From Eledone cirrhosa (lineage: Eukaryota), in the NCBI GenBank assembly GCA_964016885.1, contig OZ024741.1, positions 315,952,001-316,016,000 of the forward strand: 64,000 nt of DNA. Direction: 5' to 3'. The notes under the pieces were generated by a model. The model had not been told where the DNA came from. It did not search any database and worked only from the letters and a program-made list of their open reading frames with translations. Both the position numbers and the translations under genes were made by a program. Shown here piece by piece: positions 17,556-63,014 of the stretch (position 1 is the stretch's first letter; every line of letters starts with the position of its first letter).

Positions 17556-20500
17556 TAGGGAAAATGAAACATGTGTCAGTGAAAACGAGGTAAATTGTAA
17601 CACTTCGAATCCCAGGGTTGGGGTGGAATCACTGACAACAGAACAAATTAAAGAAAGGATCGAAAAAGTGGAGGGAGTGCATGCTCAAGATGAAACTCAA
17701 AATGAAAACAATGAGATCGTAAATGATAAAGAAATGAATGAGAATGAACTTGCCAACTTGAAGGATGAAATTATGATCGAATGGATGAAAATGAAAGAAT
17801 CTGACATGGGGGAACGAGACACCCTCCCTAAGATCCAGAACTCCAAACAGAACCAAAAGGTAATACACAAGACTAACATAATTCTCATAAATATTATCAT
17901 CACAAACAAACCAAACATTACTGATTTAAATCATCTCTATTATGCATCGGCTAAAGTCACCACTCACTTACGTGGAGTGAAAATGAAAAAACAAAGTAAT
18001 TCCCACAAGAAATCTACTTGGCAAGAGAACATCAATCGCCAAATAAACATTCTCCGATCTGACATAGAAATGTTAACAAACTGCAAAGTAGGTGAACATG
18101 TTAAACAAACTAAACTTAGAAAATTGAAAAGAAAATACAGTATAAAATCAACAAGTGACATAGACATGCTGATAGAAATAATCAAGCAAAAAGTGTCGGC
18201 CAAATCTGCTCGTATAAGGCGCTTTGAAAAACGATCTAGATTCTATAAGGACAATATGTTTAAAAACAACCAAAGAAACTTCTACAGAAAAATTGGTAAG
18301 TCAACAATAATTGCTAAATCAATGGAAGGAGGAAGTGTAAGAATTCTGGGAAAAGATCTGGGCCGAAGAAAAAGTTCATAATATACATGCCCCATGGATA
18401 GACCGACAAATGAAAGATACAGCTCACCTTGAGGAACAAATATGGGAAAATATAACAGTTGAACAGTTGCGTTTGGCTCTTAGAAAAACCAGCAAATGGA
18501 AATCCCCAGGAAAAGACAAAATACCAAATTTTGGGATAAATGCCTTCACAGAGTCTCATGAGCTGTTAGCCCAACTTTACAATGAAATAGTTAAGGAGCC
18601 AGAAAAGATACCATCATGGCTAGTTAACGGCAGTACATTCCTGCTTCCGAAGAATGATGAGACACACAATCCCAAAAATTACAGACCGATAACTTGCTTG
18701 ACCACAATGTATAAAAATTTAACATCAGTCCTAACTGAATATACATATGACCACCTGATAACAAATGATCTATTTCCCAATGAGCAGAAAAGGTGTAAAC
18801 GAGGCTCATATGGCCGTAAGGATCAGCTTTTGGTTGACAAAATGATACTGAAAGATTGTCATAATAGACACAAAAATCTATCAATTGCTTGGATAGATTA
18901 TAAAAAAGCATTCGATAGTTTGCCACACAGTTGGATTGAAAAATATTTAGAGATTTTCAAAATATCTCCCGTTGTCAGGAGGTTCCTGTCATCCAGACAT
19001 GGAAAACGACACACCTTTTGAATAGTGAAAAAAAATCACTGGAAGCTGGAGAAGTTAATATTGATTGTGGAATTTTTCAGGGTGACTTTTATCACCGCTT
19101 TTATTCTGCATCGCATTTATACCATTAAGTAAAATGTTCAATGAAACAAAACATGGATATAAAGTCTGACAAAACCATTAATCACTGGTTCTACATGGAT
19201 GACCTGAAACTATTTGCAAAAAATGATGAACAATTGCAAGGGCTATTATCCACTGTGGAGTAGTTCAGTGATGACATTAAAATGGAGATTGGACTAGATA
19301 AATGCACCAAAGCAACGTTCACCAGAGGAAAGTTGCTGAAAAGTTCAGACATTAATCTTGATCGGAGGAATGTGATAAAAGAACTTGATCAAGAGGAAAC
19401 TTACAAATATCTAGGTGTTCGTGAAGGAGACGGAATCAAGCACTCGACAATGAGGGAAAGGATAAGGAAGGAATGTTACCGCAGAGTAAGAGCAATCTTA
19501 AGAACGGAATTGAATGCAAGGAATAGGATCGATGCCATAAACACGCTTGCCATACCAGTAGTAACCTACAGTTACAATGTCATCAACTGGTCAAGCACAG
19601 AGATCCGTAGGCTCGATACAAAAATTACAAAATTCTTAACCATGCACAGAATGCATCACCCTAAGGCAGATACAGATAGAATATATCTCCCTGGGAAAGA
19701 AGGAGGACGTGGGTTAATCCAGTTAGACATTGCGTTGAAAACTGCAACAATTGGATTATCTACATATCTAAGGGAATCACATGGTTGGATGATCAAACTC
19801 GTTTTGAAACACGAAAGCATAAAAAGATCATACTCCATTACAAAAGATGCACAAAGATACAGTAATGGACTACAAATTTCAGAAGTCCCATTTACTGCTG
19901 AAATGGAAAACACAGAAAAAGCAAAGCAGGTAAAAGTAACTGCAAAGAAAGAACTGCTACAGAAACTGGCTAAGAAATGGCAAGAAAAGCCTCTGTATGG
20001 AAAATACCCAGAAAGAGCTAACAATCCTGATGTTGACAAAACTTTAACCCATCTGTGGTTGGCATCCTCTGGACTGAAATCGGAGACTGAAGGACTGATT
20101 ATATCCGCACACGATCAGTGTCTGCCATCAAAAAATTACCAAGCCAACATAATAAAAATGGATGCAACCCATTATGCCGTGTATGTAAAAAAACAACCAG
20201 AGACCATTGATCATATAATTTCAATGTGCAGTCCTAAACAGGCATGACAGAGTTGCACATTATATACATTGGATAATGTGTAAGCATTTTGACTTGCCCC
20301 ATCAAAAGAATTGGTGGGAGCATCAACCACCTCCCATACTTGAAAAAGATCACATCTCAATCTTGTGGAACTTTAGCATCCAAACAGACCGAAAAATAGA
20401 TGCAAATAGACCTGATATAATACCGAAGGACTTTAAAAAGAGGGTATGCCTGCTAATTGATATGTCCTTTCCAATAGACAAGAATGTATCTATAAAAACA

Positions 20501-55911: not shown

Positions 55912-55998
<87 letters not shown>

Positions 55999-56030
55999 AA
56001 TAACAAAGAACGCCTATAGCATATGCATAT

Positions 56031-56088
56031 CTTTACTTGCTAACATTGTTTCATCTGCACTATAAGTGGGACTCATCAGAGCATAAAG
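56031..56088 (-). ncRNA. PLE type I hammerhead ribozyme (core intact)
   Basis: Minus strand ctttatgct CTGATGA gtcccacttatagtgcagat GAAA caatg TT agcaagtaaag. Confidence 0.7.
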
Positions 56089-56743
56089 GTTAATTACATA
56101 CCATACAAGCAATAACAAATCCAAGACATTGAAGAATGAAAAATAATAATAGACGATAAAGGATATTAAGGAAGTAAAAGTAAAAATAAAGATAAGAATA
56201 AAAATAAAAATAAAAATAAAAATAAAAATAAGAGAATAAAATAAACAATGAAAAATAAGGGGTGCTATCAGTCACAGTTGGGCGGGGTGCTGTCAACATG
56301 TAGTTACATACAAGCATACACATGGATAAGAGAACAGACAAGAGTAGATAAGATAGATAGGATTAGGTAAGAGTAGGTAAAAAATAGGTGAAAAACAGAC
56401 TTATAATATATATAAGAAAATATAAAGAAATACATAACAAACTTACATATAAAATATAAAATATACAGATAATAGTGATACAGGGTAAGGAATGAGATAA
56501 AATAATATAAAATTAAAATTAAAATTATATAAAATAGAACATAATATAATATAATCATGAAATAAGATAAAATAAGGTAAACTAAAATAAAATAAAATAG
56601 ACTAAATTAAAATAATATAATATAAGATATAATTAAATGTAATTAAATAAATAAATAAATAAATAAATAAAGTTAAATAAATAAATAAAATTAAAATTAA
56701 AATTAAAATTAAATTTAAATAAATAAATAAATAAATAAATAAG

Positions 56744-56778
<35 letters not shown>

Positions 56779-57100
56779 ATGGAATTAAATAAGTAAATAA
56801 ATAAAATTAAAACAAATAACGAAACGAAATTAAATTTCGTTTCGTTTGTAACTCACTTTTGTATGACTGACGCTTAAACAATTAAGTTAAAAATGTACAT
56901 CCACATATGTATACTGAAATACTAGTATGCATATGAATACACACACGTGTACATATGTAGATGTACCGAGTTTTTCACTGGACACTTTACTGTGAGTGTC
57001 CAGCTATTCTGTATGTAAACACACAGACAAACCGGTTTTTAGAGTCATACTGGTTTTCGAGGAAACACCTTTCCTCTATTCTCCAGAAAGCCAGACAAGG

Positions 57101-57145
57101 AATATTGGACTAGTTTCGATGTTGTTACATCTCATCAGCAATATT
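57101..57145 (-). ncRNA. Type I minimal hammerhead ribozyme, copy 1
   Basis: Reverse complement of 58061-58105. Confidence 0.92.
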
Positions 57146-57566
57146 TACCTATCTTCCGGCCTTTCTAGAGAATCGTAAAAGCACATATCGTTATATGCTT
57201 TTTCTATGAAAATTAGTAGTGGGCAGACTAATTTGCATAGAGCGTGAGTACGTACCGGTTGAGCGGAGACGATAAAAACAAATAACGAAACGAAATTAAA
57301 TTTCGTTTCGTTTGTAACTCACTTTTGTATGACTGACGCTTAAACAATTAAGTTAAAAATGTACATCCACATATGTATACTGAAATACTAGTATGCATAT
57401 GAATACACACACGTGTACATATGTAGATGTACCGAGTTTTTCACTGGACACTTTACTGTGAGTGTCCAGCTATTCTGTATGTAAACACACAGACAAACCG
57501 GTTTTTAGAGTCATACTGGTTTTCGAGGAAACACCTTTCCTCTATTCTCCAGAAAGCCAGACAAGG

Positions 57567-57611
57567 AATATTGGACTAGTTTCGATGTTGTTACATCTCA
57601 TCAGCAATATT
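57567..57611 (-). ncRNA. Type I minimal hammerhead ribozyme, copy 2
   Basis: Identical to copy 1, 466 nt away. Confidence 0.92.
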
Positions 57612-58060
57612 TACATATCTTCCGGCCTTTCTAGAGAATCGTAAAAGCACATATCGTTATATGCTTTTTCTATGAAAATTAGTAGTGGGCAGACTAATTT
57701 GCATAGAGCGTGAGTACGTACCGGTATACAGAATAGCTGGACACTCACAGTAAAGTGTCCAGTGAAAAACTCGGTACATCTACATATGTACACGTGTGTG
57801 TATTCATATGCATACTAGTATTTTAGTATACATATGTGGATGTACATTTTTAACTTAATTGTTTAAGCGTCAGTCATACAAAAGTGAGTTACAAACGAAA
57901 CGAAATTTAATTTCGTTTCGTTATTTGTTTTTATCGTCTCCGCTGAACCGGTACGTACTCACGCTCTATGCAAATTAGTCTGCCCACTACTAATTTTCAT
58001 AGAAAAAGCATATAACGATATGTGCTTTTACGATTCTCTAGAAAGGCCGGAAGATAGGTA

Positions 58061-58105
58061 AATATTGCTGATGAGATGTAACAACATCGAAACTAGTCCA
58101 ATATT
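58061..58105 (+). ncRNA. Type I minimal hammerhead ribozyme, copy 3
   Basis: AATATTG CTGATGA GATGT aaca ACATC GAAA CTAG TC CAATATT; GUC cleavage after 58098. Confidence 0.93.
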
Positions 58106-60040
58106 CCTTGTCTGGCTTTCTGGAGAATAGAGGAAAGGTGTTTCCTCGAAAACCAGTATGACTCTAAAAACCGGTTTGTCTGTGTGTTTACATACAGAAT
58201 AGCTGGACACTCACAGTAAAGTGTCCAGTGAAAAACTCGGTACATCTACATATGTACACGTGTGTGTATTCATATGCATACTAGTATTTCAGTATACATA
58301 TGTGGATGTACATTTTTAACTTAATTGTTTAAATAAAATTAGATAACATGAAATGAAATAAAATAAAATAAAATGAAATAAAGTAAATTGAGATAAGATA
58401 TATATTTTTTTAGAATATATCTCTTGAATATATCAGGGGCCCACGAAGGCACTAAGTGTCACAGTTATGTGTATCACTTGACCATTTTTTTTAAATATAT
58501 TTCTTGAAAATATCAGGGGCCCACGAAGGCACTAAGTGTCACAGTCACCAGTATCACTTGACCATTGCAAGGCAATGGAGGCGTCCCAGGTTGGGCAGTC
58601 TCAAAAGTTCACTCGAAAGTCGCGGGTGTGCATTCACACAGTTGAGCGGTGGGGTAATCACAAACCGGTTCACACCCGGGCAGGAGTCCAATGGTCAGAG
58701 AGAGGTGCATCGAAGGAAGGTAGGAGAATTCACGTGCATTAGCAAGCGAGGTGCAGGCGGGTTAGCCAAAGCAAGCAGACACAGTTGGAGCGCATACAAA
58801 AGATATATAAAAGGACAGAAGATATATAAAAAATAGCTTCAAGAGCCATTAAGTCACCGCATTGGGACATCACAAGATTGTACACATCAATATGTTCAGC
58901 ACGTATATGCACATATACATACCACATGCATATGCAGAGACGGTATACATATATATATATTTTTTTTATATACAGACATATACAACCACCTACACCCATA
59001 CACATATAAATGTATACACGGACACACACGCACACACACACAGCGTAGGACACCCGGGTCAAAGCTGATATTAAACACCGAAATATCACATTAGGCCAGA
59101 CCCACCACCACGGATAATACATTCAAAATAAATACATACGATGAGATGTAGTAAAATAAAGTTGAAATCCTACGGAGATAATCATGTCCGCACGTGCCAT
59201 TGCCCGATTCAAGTGTACACAGACCGTTAGTAACTACGGAGGGCTATCGGGGCCAAAACGTTACTTTCGGGATCATAACAACGACCGTCAATATATGGAA
59301 GGCCGATCGTGCTAGAAAGACTACAACCCCGGGCAAGAGCTCCCAGAAGTCAGCCTGTAGATCTTAAACCACAGAATATGAGGGCAACACGTACATGCGC
59401 CACGTATCCACTGCTTACGGCGGGATGGCACAGGTCCGCCCACAGTTACAGGCTAAATTTCTATTAGTGCAGCCTAAATCACAGTACACGCTTTACATAA
59501 ATACATTACCTCACAACTCATGCGCATACAGAGGTACAGATCCACAAGATATACGTCAGGATAGACCCACCAATGCACCAATGGTGGGTAGGCGAGCGTG
59601 GATGGGTTACATCCGCTGTGCCAAACAGGGGTGCTTATTAACATACACACCCACTCACCCGTACACCCCAATATCCAGATCAATATCCTCCCACAGGCAT
59701 ACGTATACATTCACCGACTCATATACATAGACGACCAACAATAGGAGACAGTTACACACAATCAGAGACAGTTACACAAGACAGCCCAACTGGAGGAATA
59801 AGGAAGTGCTAGCTAACAGGTTTAAAGTAGAAGAAAGAGCTTAATATTCGGTGGGGGCAAGAGGAGAATATTTCAGACTTTCTATTTAGTAGAGGGCATT
59901 TAGCAAATATAATAGAGTGGGATTCGGCAAGGCATAGGTTACATACTCTATTATGAGGAGTATATGGATGGGATTTAGCAACCTGCCGCCAAGTAAGTGT
60001 GTAATGTGTTCGTGCATTTTTTACAACCCAAAATCTGGCC

Positions 60041-60629
60041 ATTTTTTACAACCCAAAATCTGGCCTCTCATCTGGCCATTACTAATAATAAGAAAATAAA
60101 GGAAGGCCTGGACAACCTAAGCCTAGGGGAAAACACGGTAGTGGACAGAGTGGGCAGAAACACAAGTGGTGATCATTCTGAGAATAGCATCACCAGAGGT
60201 TGTAACTGTAGAAGGGCTTCAGGCTGCTCCCTGAATGGTTTCTGCCTTGTTAGAAACATAGTTTATGCGTGTGATGTAGTAACTACGGCGTCCACTAAGA
60301 CCTATATAGGATCAACCTCCACCCCCTTTAAGACCAGGTTTAACTCTCACCAATGCACTTTTAGACATAATAAACTGAGGAACTCCACCTCCTGGGCAGC
60401 GTACGTCCATAATTTAAAAAATGCACGAACACATTACACACTTACTTGGCGGCAGGTTGCTAAATCCCATCCATATACTCCTCATAATAGAGTATGTAAC
60501 CTATGCCTTGCCGAATCCCACTCTATTATATTTGCTAAATGCCCTCTACTAAATAGAAAGTCTGAAATATTCTCCTCTTGCCCCCACCGAATATTAAGCT
60601 CTTTCTTCTACTTTAAACCTGTTAGCTAG
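60041..60629 (+). pseudogene. PLE C-terminal GIY-YIG endonuclease (5' truncated, frame open)
   Basis: CNCR...CSLNGFCL..NIVY.C.V...TYIGST...FKTRFNSH...F, CNLCLAE, LLNRKSEIFSSCPH. Confidence 0.93.
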
Positions 60630-62112
60630 CACTTCCTTATTCCTCCAGTTGGGCTGTCTTGTGTAACTGTCTCTGATTGTGTGTAACTGTCTCCTATTGT
60701 TGGTCGTCTATGTATATGAGTCGGTGAATGTATACGTATGCCTGTGGGAGGATATTGATCTGGATATTGGGGTGTACGGGTGAGTGGGTGTGTATGTTAA
60801 TAAGCACCCCTGTTTGGCACAGCGGATGTAACCCATCCACGCTCGCCTACCCACCATTGGTGCATTGGTGGGTCTATCCTGACGTATATCTTGTGGATCT
60901 GTACCTCTGTATGCGCATGAGTTGTGAGGTAATGTATTTATGTAAAGCGTGTACTGTGATTTAGGCTGCACTAATAGAAATTTAGCCTGTAACTGTGGGC
61001 GGACCTGTGCCATCCCGCCGTAAGCAGTGGATACGTGGCGCATGTACGGGTTGCCCTCATATTCTGTGGTTTAAGATCTACAGGCTGACTTCTGGGAGCT
61101 CTTGCCCGGGGTTGTAGCCTTCCATATATTGACGGTCGTTGTTATGATCCCGAAAGTAACGTTTTGGCCCCGATAGCCCTCCGTAGTTACTAACGGTCTG
61201 TGTACACTTGAATCGGGCAATGGCACGTGCGGACATGATTATCTCCGTAGGATTTCAACTTTATTTTACTACATCTCATCGTATGTATTTATTTTGAATG
61301 TATTATCCGTGGTGGTGGGTCTGGCCTAATGTGGTATTTCGGTGTTTAATATCAGCTTTGACCCGGGTGTCCTACGCTGTGTGTGTGTGCGTGTGTGTCC
61401 GTGTATACATTTATATGTGTATGGGTGTAGGTGGTTGTATATGTCTGTATATAAAAAAAAATATATATATATATGTATACCGTCTCTGCATATGCATGTG
61501 GTGTGTATATGTGCATATACGTGCTGAACATATTGATGTGTACAATCTTGTGATGTCCCAATGCGGTGACTTAATGGCTCTTGAAGCTATTTTTTATATA
61601 TCTTCTGTCCTTTTATATATCTTTTGTATGCGCTCCAACTGTGTCTGCTTGCTTTGGCTAACCCGCCTGCACCTCGCTTGCTAATGCACGTGAATTCTCT
61701 TACCTTCCTTCGATGCACCTCTCTCTGACCATTGGACTCCTGCCCGGGTGTGAACCGGTTTGTGATTACCCCACCGCTCAACTGTGTGAATGCACACCCG
61801 CGACTTTCGAGTGAACTTTTGAGACTGCCCAACCTGGGATGCCTCCATTGCCTTGCAATGGTCAAGTGATACTGGTGACTGTGACACTTAGTGCCTTCCT
61901 GGGCCCCTGATATTTTCAAGAAATATATTTTTAAAAAATGGTCAAGTGATACACATAACTGTGACACTTAGTGCCTTCGTGGGCCCCTGATATATTCAAG
62001 AGATATATTCTAAAAAAATATATATCTTATCTCAATTTACTTTATTTCATTTTATTTTATTTTATTTCATTTCATGTTATCTAATTTTATTTATTTACTT
62101 ATTTAATTCCAT

Positions 62113-62143
<31 letters not shown>

Positions 62144-62144
62144 C

Positions 62145-62180
<36 letters not shown>

Positions 62181-62811
62181 ATTTAATTTTAATTTTAATT
62201 TTAATTTTAATTTATTTATTTATTTAACTTTATTTATTTATTTATTTATTTATTTAATTACATTTAATTATATCTTATATTATATTATTTTAATTTAGTC
62301 TATTTTATTTTATTTTAGTTTACCTTATTTTATCTTATTTTATGATTATATTATATTATGTTCTATTTTATATAATTTTAATTTTAATTTTATATTATTT
62401 TATCTCATTCCTTACCCTGTATCACTATTATCTGTATATTTTATATTTTATATGTAAGTTTGTTATGTATTTCTTTATATTTTCTTATATATATTATAAG
62501 TCTGTTTTTCACCTATTTTTTACCTACTCTTACCTAATCCTATCTATCTTATCTACTCTTGTCTGTTCTCTTATCCATGTGTATGCTTGTATGTAACTAT
62601 ATGTTGACAGCACCCCGCCCAACTGTGACTGATAGCATCCCTTATTTTTCATTGTTTATTTTATTATCTTATTTTTATTTTTATTTTTATTTTTATTTTT
62701 ATTCTTATCTTTATTTTTACTTTTACTTCCTTAATATCCTTTATCGTCTATTATTATTTTTCATTCTTCAATGTCTTGGATTTGTTATTGCTTGTATGGT
62801 ATGTAATTAAC

Positions 62812-62870
62812 CTTTATGCTCTGATGAGTCCCACTTATAGTGCGGATGTAACAATGTTAGCAAATAAAGA
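62812..62870 (+). ncRNA. PLE hammerhead, right-arm copy with core mutation
   Basis: CTGATGA 62821-27; GTAA replaces GAAA at 62848-51. Confidence 0.65.
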
Positions 62871-63014
62871 TATGCATATGCTATAGGCGTTCTTTGTTAT
62901 TTATTATATCACGGCTCTGTCCTCAGACATTGAGCTAACCTTATACTGCCTGCTGGATAAGTGGAGTGTTATACACCCCTGATCCTCTCCCTAGTATACT
63001 ATATATATATATAT

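Follow-up and report, generated by a model that had tools for sequence, protein, structure and literature searches.

How did a non-coding ribozyme repeat come to lie, as two opposed arms, inside one arm of a Penelope-like element (PLE)? The locus that raises this question lies in a 64,000-nucleotide stretch of the Eledone cirrhosa genome, the whole of which is referred to here as the window. The spread of animal hammerhead repeats is still described as proposed, and a 2026 preprint urges work on their mobilisation (10.64898/2026.07.22.740005); on the PLE side, the account given in PMC8557442 terms the origin of tandem and inverted structures and of tails undefined.

The host of the repeat is an inverted pair. 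Its left, inverted arm (55991..60023, minus strand) is interrupted by the insert and ends 3′ in an A (...TTATTTATTATAT) that adjoins (TA)n at 55990. The right, longer copy (60024..62909, plus strand) is 5′-truncated inside its open reading frame (ORF), retains the C-terminal part of that ORF with a GIY-YIG-like region in an open frame at 59997-60629, and continues through a 2.3-kb 3′ region to its end A at 62909. The right arm alone carries a tail (62910..62999, plus strand), which corresponds to the initial ~90 nt of the following tandem unit; (TA)n comes directly after it. Inverted pairs with (TA)n flanks recur across the host family, the ~90-nt tail being confined to one arm in 9 of the 10 determinable pairs, and in L083 a 1.3-kb partial copy precedes the ORF (a partial tandem, pLTR). 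The family ORF spans 844 aa and contains a YRDD motif, read by eye. The GIY-YIG match of the window ORF is weak and lies below the cut-off (E 0.0078, 16.9 bits); the full 844-aa ORF matched no Pfam family at E ≤ 0.1 and gave no relevant match in a PDB sequence search, and look-alike clusters in the Atlas, which serve as leads only, bear GIY-YIG, RVT_1, HTH_animal, and DUF8422. Taken with the YRDD motif, the weak C-terminal match, the partial tandems, the inverted pairs, and the one-sided tail, the 844-aa ORF makes assignment to the Penelope-like elements, the label given by the sequence-only reading, a reasonable one.

Within the left arm, a 1,521-bp insert at 56810-58330 is bracketed by two plus-strand copies of the 11-mer AAATAAAATTA, at 56799-56809 and 58331-58341, and the reverse complement of this 11-mer occurs as a single copy in the host's mirror arm, at 62082-62092. 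All three strings are thus present where the sequence-only reading had placed them. On its own the 11-mer is weak evidence: as the region is AT-rich and of low complexity, the window contains it 5 times where 0.25 occurrences would be expected, with one extra copy at 56683. The decisive evidence comes from comparison of the arms. We deleted 56810-58341 (the insert plus one repeat copy) from the left arm 55991-60023 and aligned the remainder to the reverse complement of 60415-62909. The arms align end to end; over 2,483 aligned bases they differ by 16 substitutions (0.64% of sites), with 4 indel events in the alignment. The flanks are colinear and match at 100 of 100 bases across the insertion site, with no difference in the 101 bases printed around it. 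The arm comparison thereby confirms that the block at 56810-58330 is a true insertion, with 62082-62092 (minus strand) as its empty site.

The length of the target-site duplication can be bracketed rather than fixed. The full flank match comprises 12 bases (TAAATAAAATTA), the left copy being matched to 12 nt from 56798. Its final A may be element-derived instead, and at the right copy the T just before the duplication, together with the duplication's own first two A, is also compatible with the element end, so that the first three bases (right copy) and the last (left copy) of the 12 also fit the element ends. Because these bases are common to the insert ends, the duplication measures 8-12 bp, most simply 11-12. 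The earlier figure of 11 bp fits this range, whereas its margin of 1-2 bp was too narrow and extends to 4 bp.

An uninterrupted 52-nt version of the site was found in eight further host-family copies with 0-2 mismatches (4 of 14 sources scanned). Since the empty state is present in the mirror arm and in these eight copies, it is ancestral, and the insertion postdates the host inverted pair, as previously proposed. The accompanying description of the insertion as very recent holds relative to the host, but the arms are 0.64% apart and the 1,521 bp of the insert already include 3 private substitutions; compared with the host pair the insert is the younger of the two, yet it is not brand new. Short reads cannot reveal an empty allele here, since host copies in the tens of thousands resemble one.

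The insert itself is a multimer of a 466-bp non-coding unit, laid out in two opposed arms with fixed 3′ ends outward. The left arm (56810..57725) holds 1.97 units with the ribozyme strand on minus; its outer (3′) end lies at unit 298/299, the "tail" end, and its inner end at unit 315. Unit mapping places a tail segment (unit 231-299) at 56810..56878 (minus strand), at the outer end of the left arm only, and a perfect 29-nt hairpin palindrome lies inside it at 56818-56846. The right arm (57726..58330) holds 1.3 units with the ribozyme strand on plus, runs from an inner end at unit 94 to an outer (3′) end at unit 231-234, and lacks the tail. The arms meet bluntly at 57725/57726, with 0 shared and 0 extra bases.

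Each of the three stretches of the unit that cover the ribozyme region in the window matched the Rfam family HH9 in an E-value search (E 3e-07 to 6e-06). The first predicted hammerhead, of type I with a minimal helix III formed by the palindrome ACUAGU, lies at 57085..57156 (minus strand; 38.9 bits, E 3.1e-07), the second at 57551..57622 (minus strand; 34.9 bits), and the third in the right arm at 58050..58121 (plus strand; 38.9 bits). One of the private substitutions is a G-to-T change in the distal helix I of the second motif. At Rfam gathering thresholds the window yielded zero matches, the hammerheads scoring below the gathering score of 52; direct reading recovers the core CUGAUGAG...CGAAAC...GUC and a 7-bp helix I. 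The unit is also predicted to fold strongly as a circle (-156.5 versus -95.4 ± 5.7 kcal/mol for shuffles, z -10.7). Judged by its sequence, the insert is a Penelope-type minimal hammerhead repeat, i.e., an animal non-LTR retrozyme.

The unit family has at least 160 matches in the genome at 95-100% identity (40 scored of 351 candidates), dispersed at about 35 loci without LTR, PBS, or PPT. Our sample comprised 38 insertions of at least 300 bp, namely 37 fetched stretches and the window. Every outer end in this sample falls at unit 227-234 or 296-303, that is, at about 230 or about 300, two positions 72 nt apart around the 29-nt hairpin; inner ends are scattered over the unit. All 24 clear two-armed copies have one outer end of each kind, a rule that, read by eye, extends to one decayed copy and to four with 9-13-nt stubs of a second arm. 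In these 24 copies the arm order is always (-) then (+). Arms consist of up to ~16 units, each exactly 466 bp long and arranged head to tail without intervening coding sequence, and at the inner junctions the two arms either share 0-12 nt or are separated by 5-27 nt of filler.

The two arms of an insertion also carry one and the same sequence variant. Alleles at unit positions 222 and 322 match between both arms in 24 of 24 copies, an agreement whose chance probability, by our own arithmetic, is ~1e-4 or less for position 222 alone. Divergence within an arm equals that between arms (0.44% each), against 0.72% between insertions. Tracts of (TA)5 or longer adjoin 36 of the 38 insertions. Target-site duplications, compiled at other copies, span 7-13 bp where readable: besides the 8-12 bp of the window, 11-13 bp in L066, 9-12 in L047, 7-12 in L049, and ~10-13 in L031, whereas the 15-39 bp that appear duplicated where flanks are (TA)n or quasi-periodic give upper bounds only. 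The fixed 3′ ends, variable 5′ ends, and duplications elsewhere in the family support the staggered cleavage and target-primed copying put forward earlier from the window. Ten of the 38 insertions consist of a single arm, and some events fall outside a two-primer scheme, because at least five of these single-armed copies lack a duplication at the truncated side.

Unit insertions and the coding host PLE family share their layout of inverted arms, one-sided tail, and (TA)n targets. Searches of the unit against the host PLE family (blastn at word size 7, tblastn, and nhmmer --max) detected no similarity, and neither the hairpin nor a unit-like hammerhead was found in the host-family and second-family loci scanned. 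Two chimeric insertions combine the unit with PLE sequence within one two-armed structure, although these would also fit insertion accompanied by loss of target DNA. For PLE insertions elsewhere, duplications of 8-10 bp are described, along with a truncated copy in inverted orientation, a tail of 30-40 bp on one side, and AT-rich or (TA)n targets (PMC3846280, PMC8557442).

From these features we infer that a PLE enzyme supplied the cut and both cDNAs. The insert is best explained as a young copy of the 466-bp hammerhead repeat, probably written in by a PLE reverse transcriptase/GIY-YIG endonuclease that primed at the two 3′ ends left by a staggered cut. A Penelope-like enzyme would make a staggered cut in an AT-rich or (TA)n target, and both 3′ ends of the break would prime reverse transcription on ribozyme-strand RNA. 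Both cDNAs would stem from one RNA, a circle or a multimer left uncut, since none of the outer ends coincides with the ribozyme cut site; end joining or template switching would then connect them mid-insert. We propose more tentatively, as a possibility somewhat short of an even chance, a general route by which retrozymes arrive as ready two-armed arrays: a PLE cut with a stagger of ~8-13 bases, two reverse transcriptions from two sites 72 nt apart on one circular RNA, several rounds around it, and joining of the cDNAs.

Two narrower variants of the priming step were discarded. A linear, ribozyme-cut monomer is excluded as template, the outer end lying at the cut site (unit 466/1) in 0 of 38 insertions, and priming by (TA)n base pairing alone is insufficient, as the ~228 end shares no bases with the flank.

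Other histories of the insert were weighed against copying by a PLE enzyme. Rather than a separate non-coding element, the block could be nothing more than the truncated end (pLTR) of a coding PLE, given that minimal hammerheads of this type occur in PLE pLTRs, as described in PMC7761336. Such a piece would sit poorly with up to ~16 exact head-to-tail units with nothing coding between, with a longest open frame of 67 aa in the insert and its lack of similarity to the 844-aa family, and with a strict hammerhead pattern that, across the 37 fetched stretches, matched nowhere outside unit blocks; we regard it as very unlikely. It is slightly less likely still that a single unit inserted and that multimer and inversion arose by later local amplification (unequal crossing-over, replication errors, satellite birth), even though amplification into tandem repeats is proposed in the 2026 preprint (10.64898/2026.07.22.740005). 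The duplication encloses the entire two-armed block, arm lengths are non-integer with outer ends fixed and inner ends free, units within an arm are no closer to each other than units across arms, and 24 loci show this layout with junctions that differ.

Internal junctions with short shared bases and fillers are typical of end joining, and duplications are absent from some one-armed copies; both would suit capture at the DNA level, in which repeat DNA, extrachromosomal or from another array, is ligated into a double-strand break with no reverse transcription at the target. Random ends would then be expected, whereas the outer ends lie at two positions only and always as one of each; an 8-12-bp duplication requires a staggered cut, and the strong (TA)n preference fits PLE endonuclease behaviour as reported in PMC8557442. 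We consider capture highly improbable. Least credible is an assembly artefact, in which the repeat block would have been misplaced into one side of an inverted repeat that is difficult to assemble. PLE structures of the inverted and tandem kind do trouble assemblies (PMC8557442), and four runs of short contigs bridged neither junction, skipping the repeats at 56489-56811 and 58331-58424. A mis-join, however, would neither yield an exact extra copy of 11-12 bases that are single in the mirror arm nor keep the flanks colinear; about 35 other loci share the architecture and the same two end positions, and the window contains no N.

The insert resembles metazoan non-LTR retrozymes (Cervera and de la Pena 2020, PMC7229834; PMC7761336; Li, Clavereau and Pollet 2026, 10.64898/2026.07.22.740005) in being built of non-coding tandem units that each bear a type I hammerhead, and in having no LTR, primer-binding site, or polypurine tract; for these elements, too, target duplications exceed 4 bp "when present" and dependence on PLEs is proposed. 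It differs in its unit of 466 bp, against ~150-300 bp for animals (PMC7761336), and in its minimal, PLE-type ribozyme with palindromic helix III, which is not the "classical" type I. In the portions of these three accounts available to us, two opposed arms, two fixed ends, a one-sided tail, (TA)n targeting, and a filled/empty pair do not appear.

A second close system is provided by insertions of endonuclease-bearing PLEs, among them the Adineta vaga element Pen2a_Av (PMC3846280), for which Craig et al. 2021 give a general scheme (PMC8557442). Insertions of that type, as described there, share the inverted 5′-truncated copy with 3′ ends outward, the extension ("tail") at one end only, the AT-rich or (TA)n preference, and duplications of 8-10 bp that are likewise backed by an empty allelic site. 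Unlike them, our insert lacks an ORF and belongs to a family with arms of up to ~16 short units, and its tail measures 72 nt (~90 nt in the host family) against 30-40 bp (PMC3846280, PMC8557442). Protein-less PLE passengers with multicopy head-to-tail insertions are also represented by non-autonomous derivatives in Chlamys, e.g., MRC1 (PMC8557442); according to that account, these have 3′ ends in common with a recognised autonomous partner and carry no hammerheads, whereas sequence comparison with the loci scanned here yielded no partner for the repeat unit.

A snap-back (self-priming) origin of the inversion is excluded in our case: inner ends differ freely (unit 315 versus 94 in the window), and the self-priming model of rotifer elements does not fit because the junctions are not palindromic. 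Twin priming, the source of 5′ inversions of human L1, starts two cDNAs on a single RNA, one at each 3′ end of a staggered cut; the resulting segments are opposed, point their 3′ ends outward, and meet via short shared bases. The insertions studied here are alike in their opposed segments and in the proposed use of two primers on one RNA, but would involve another enzyme class and fixed internal start sites on a repeating or circular template. Because the primers would start inside such a template, both arms can exceed one unit.

In most copies of the family the target duplications are unreadable because they lie in (TA)n. The window holds the target both before and after insertion because the copy at 56810-58330 entered AT-rich but non-repeat DNA within a duplicated host. 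As evidence, the resulting pair of filled and empty sites is unusually clean: it sets the cut stagger at 8-12 bases, shows that the entire two-armed multimer came in one event, and ties the layout of the insert to coding PLEs of the same genome. Should entry of two-armed arrays via one circular RNA prove true, then the filled/empty pair, the rule of one outer end of each kind, the identity of variants between arms, and the two PLE-retrozyme chimeras would together form the first sequence-level record of the route by which these repeats spread and of the enzyme behind it.

The 11-mer AAATAAAATTA stands on both sides of a 1,521-bp block in the window, with the left copy at 56799-56809 (+) and the right copy at 58331-58341 (+), and its reverse complement occurs once in the mirror arm, as an empty site, at 62082-62092 (-). 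All three were read directly from the sequence and lie exactly as the sequence-only reading had claimed. The flanking repeat by itself is weak proof, since the 11-mer is common in the window (five occurrences versus 0.25 expected from shuffles), an excess due to a region that is AT-rich and low in complexity. The decisive evidence for insertion is the alignment of the two arms of the host inverted duplication, a Penelope-like element (PLE) pair (left arm, 55991-60023, -; right arm, 60415-62909, +; spacer, 391 bp). With 56810-58341 excised and, as that reading had proposed, the two arms aligned (the right one reverse-complemented), they proved colinear end to end, differing by substitutions at 16 of 2,483 aligned positions (0.64%) and by four indel events, and were 100% identical across the 101 printed bases surrounding the insertion site. 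The 52-nt site is also intact, with zero to two mismatches, in eight further host-family copies (four of 14 other sources scanned). Because the site is uninterrupted in the mirror arm and in these eight copies, the empty state is ancestral, and the extra 11-12 bases therefore came with the insertion. The flank-to-flank match is 12 bases, but four of these (three on one side, one on the opposite side) are equally compatible with the element termini, so that the duplication measures 8-12 bp; it is real, whereas the uncertainty of 1-2 bp attached to an 11-bp duplication was too narrow.

Insertion postdates formation of the host pair, though both are of the same order of age, the insert carrying three private substitutions in 1,521 bp versus a mean of eight per host arm in 2,483 bp. 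The proposed order of events, insertion after host inversion, thus stands, but the description "very recent" applies only relative to the host. An 80-bp direct repeat (90% identical) is also present in the host 3′ region of both arms (58404-58563 and 61857-62016).

The insert is composed of 466-bp units. HH9, a hammerhead model, is matched by every stretch of it that spans the ribozyme portion (38.9, 38.9 and 34.9 bits; E 3e-07 to 6e-06), and a default Rfam search of the window is blank because these scores lie below the gathering score of 52. The HH9 alignment comprises the cores CUGAUGAG and CGAAAC, a helix II of 5 bp and a helix I of 7 bp, with the palindrome ACUAGU replacing helix III. Judged by sequence, this putatively self-cleaving hammerhead is of the minimal form, which the hammerhead passage of a review ties to PLEs and to cleavage as dimers (PMC7761336). 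No open frame in the unit exceeds 67 aa, and its predicted fold as a circle is far more stable than that of shuffled sequence (z -10.7). A plain tandem array is rejected by the ribozyme strand, which is minus in the left arm (56810-57725; 1.97 units) and plus in the right (57726-58330; 1.3 units); both 3′ ends face outward, and the 5′ ends abut each other bluntly. Elsewhere in the window, three consecutive open frames at 36332-39789 (+), with AP-endonuclease, RVT_1 and zf-RVT domains, represent a LINE-type retrotransposon with frame breaks, and another RVT_1 fragment occupies 18341-19021.

The 3.0-Gb Eledone cirrhosa genome holds at least 160 matches to the unit at 95-100% identity (40 scored of 351 first-look candidates). 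We fetched 37 stretches around such matches, mapped each copy onto the unit, numbered from the ribozyme cut site, and assembled a set of 38 insertions of at least 300 bp. All outer ends fall at unit positions 227-234 or 296-303, and inner ends are scattered. Twenty-four insertions are clearly two-armed, with an arm order that is invariably minus then plus, and every one of them pairs an arm ending near 300 with an arm ending near 230. The same one-of-each-end rule is obeyed by one decayed copy and by four copies with a 9-13-nt second-arm stub, the stubs being read by eye. The 72-nt segment between the two end sites, the tail, contains a perfect 29-nt hairpin. Inner junctions were tabulated for the two-armed insertions and the decayed copy (n = 25): 19 have shared bases, numbering 1-12 in 18 and 62 in one small copy whose arms overlap across the hairpin palindrome; five carry filler of 5-27 nt; and one, that of the insert in the window, is blunt. 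The 6-nt helix III palindrome ACTAGT (unit ~451-466) lies at or beside four of the 25 junctions (L042, L047, L040/L041, L044), and unit 1-60 appears somewhat enriched for inner ends.

(TA)5 or longer adjoins 36 of the 38 insertions, the exceptions being the window copy and L066. The suggested compilation of duplications at other copies was productive where flanks are not simple repeats: 11-13 bp at L066, 9-12 at L047, 7-12 at L049 and about 10-13 at L031, beside 8-12 in the window; longer apparent flank matches lie within repeats and are upper bounds. Ten insertions are one-armed, at least five of them without duplication at the truncated side. In four one-armed copies (L050, L067, L033, L060), the truncated 5′ side adjoins unrelated non-(TA)n sequence without duplication; these copies could be additional chimeras, or insertions associated with deletions.

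With the outer ends fixed and the inner ones free, the insertions indicate copying that began at the outer ends and proceeded inward. Such a pattern has the geometry of target-primed reverse transcription that uses ribozyme-sense RNA and would start from the two 3′-OH ends of a staggered cut, and is consistent with the staggered cleavage and target priming originally proposed. Since no outer end among the 38 insertions lies at the ribozyme cut site, a linear self-cleaved monomer is excluded as template. The RNA would instead have been circular or an uncut multimer, and the longest arms, of ~16 units, would fit copying round a circle. Three unit variants are marked by positions 222/322 (CC, CT, TC; L031-L067), and a single variant runs throughout both arms in all 24 two-armed insertions, apart from a point exception confined to a single unit in each of L036 and L046. 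Unit divergence is 0.44% within an arm, 0.44% between opposite arms and 0.72% between insertions. One variant per insertion, coupled with equal within- and between-arm divergence, therefore indicates that both arms came from a single template in a single event, and disfavors later local amplification. Snap-back synthesis is excluded by the unequal junction coordinates.

The host family, which in the window spans 55991-62999, is young and extremely large: first-look candidates number 60,786, and intact open frames of 844-873 aa occur in many copies. The full copy L083 consists of a 1.3-kb partial tandem, an 844-aa ORF with a YRDD motif plus a GIY-YIG-like block at its C terminus, and a 2.3-kb 3′ region; a hammerhead search in this copy found none. 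A Pfam search of the full ORF returned no family at E<=0.1, the central open frame in the window (59997-60629, +) gives a weak GIY-YIG match (E 0.0078), and GIY-YIG, RVT_1, HTH_animal and DUF8422 occur in atlas look-alikes, as leads only. Host arms terminate at '...TTATTTATTATAT' or else some 90 nt beyond, this tail being the beginning of the next tandem unit, and (TA)n adjoins the arm ends. The tail is on one arm only in nine of ten determinable inverted pairs (two other pairs were unscorable); the exception, L092/L093 (G000:C6:49147650-49157950), has tails at both ends and identical 40-nt flanks, and could have arisen by subsequent inverted segmental duplication rather than as a single insertion. 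Excerpts of two PLE papers describe an inverted truncated copy, a one-end tail, targets that are AT-rich or (TA)n, and duplications of 8-10 bp (PMC3846280, PMC8557442), the rotifer duplications being confirmed by an empty allelic site (PMC3846280). The host family resembles these published PLEs in its inverted truncated copies, one-sided tail and (TA)n flanks, so that "host PLE" is a fair label, with the protein domains weakly recognized.

In two chimeric loci, one arm is a PLE copy with a normal 3′ end, and the other starts within the same PLE and then follows the ribozyme unit to its fixed end in (TA)n. L051 (G000:C1:404298000-404306000, 1114-4813) comprises a 3′ portion, in inverted orientation, of a second coding PLE family and then the family's sense copy, which stops internally, 80 nt past the ORF, and gives way to the 466-bp repeat, 4.4 units long and terminating in (TA)n at fixed site 233; PLE sequence continues past this switch point in nine of nine other copies of that family. 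L069 (G000:C2:59322025-59325462, 2-2960) repeats this layout using the host family: after an inverted arm come 85 nt of the ORF in sense, then 16 nt of the unit in antisense, then a diverged unit relative, 87-96% identical to the unit, that extends through its hammerhead and stops in (TA)n at fixed end 228. Such loci could reflect a template jump in one event or an insertion deleting 1-3 kb of an older neighbor, and they lend suggestive weight to PLE involvement. By analogy, the enzyme would be that of a PLE, because the unit shares its signature with published PLEs and with a coding family of this genome; blastn, tblastn and nhmmer comparisons found no sequence link between unit and host family.

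Animal non-LTR retrozymes and their suspected PLE dependence are already published. One retrozyme paper gives duplications, when present, as >4 bp, with nothing further on them in its excerpted text, and excerpts of a 2026 preprint derive retrozymes from PLE pLTRs and favor local amplification (10.64898/2026.07.22.740005). In the main-text excerpts of the retrozyme literature searched, two-armed insertions, fixed paired ends and a filled/empty pair are not described. The special value of the present finding lies in a target duplication that is both readable and internally controlled.
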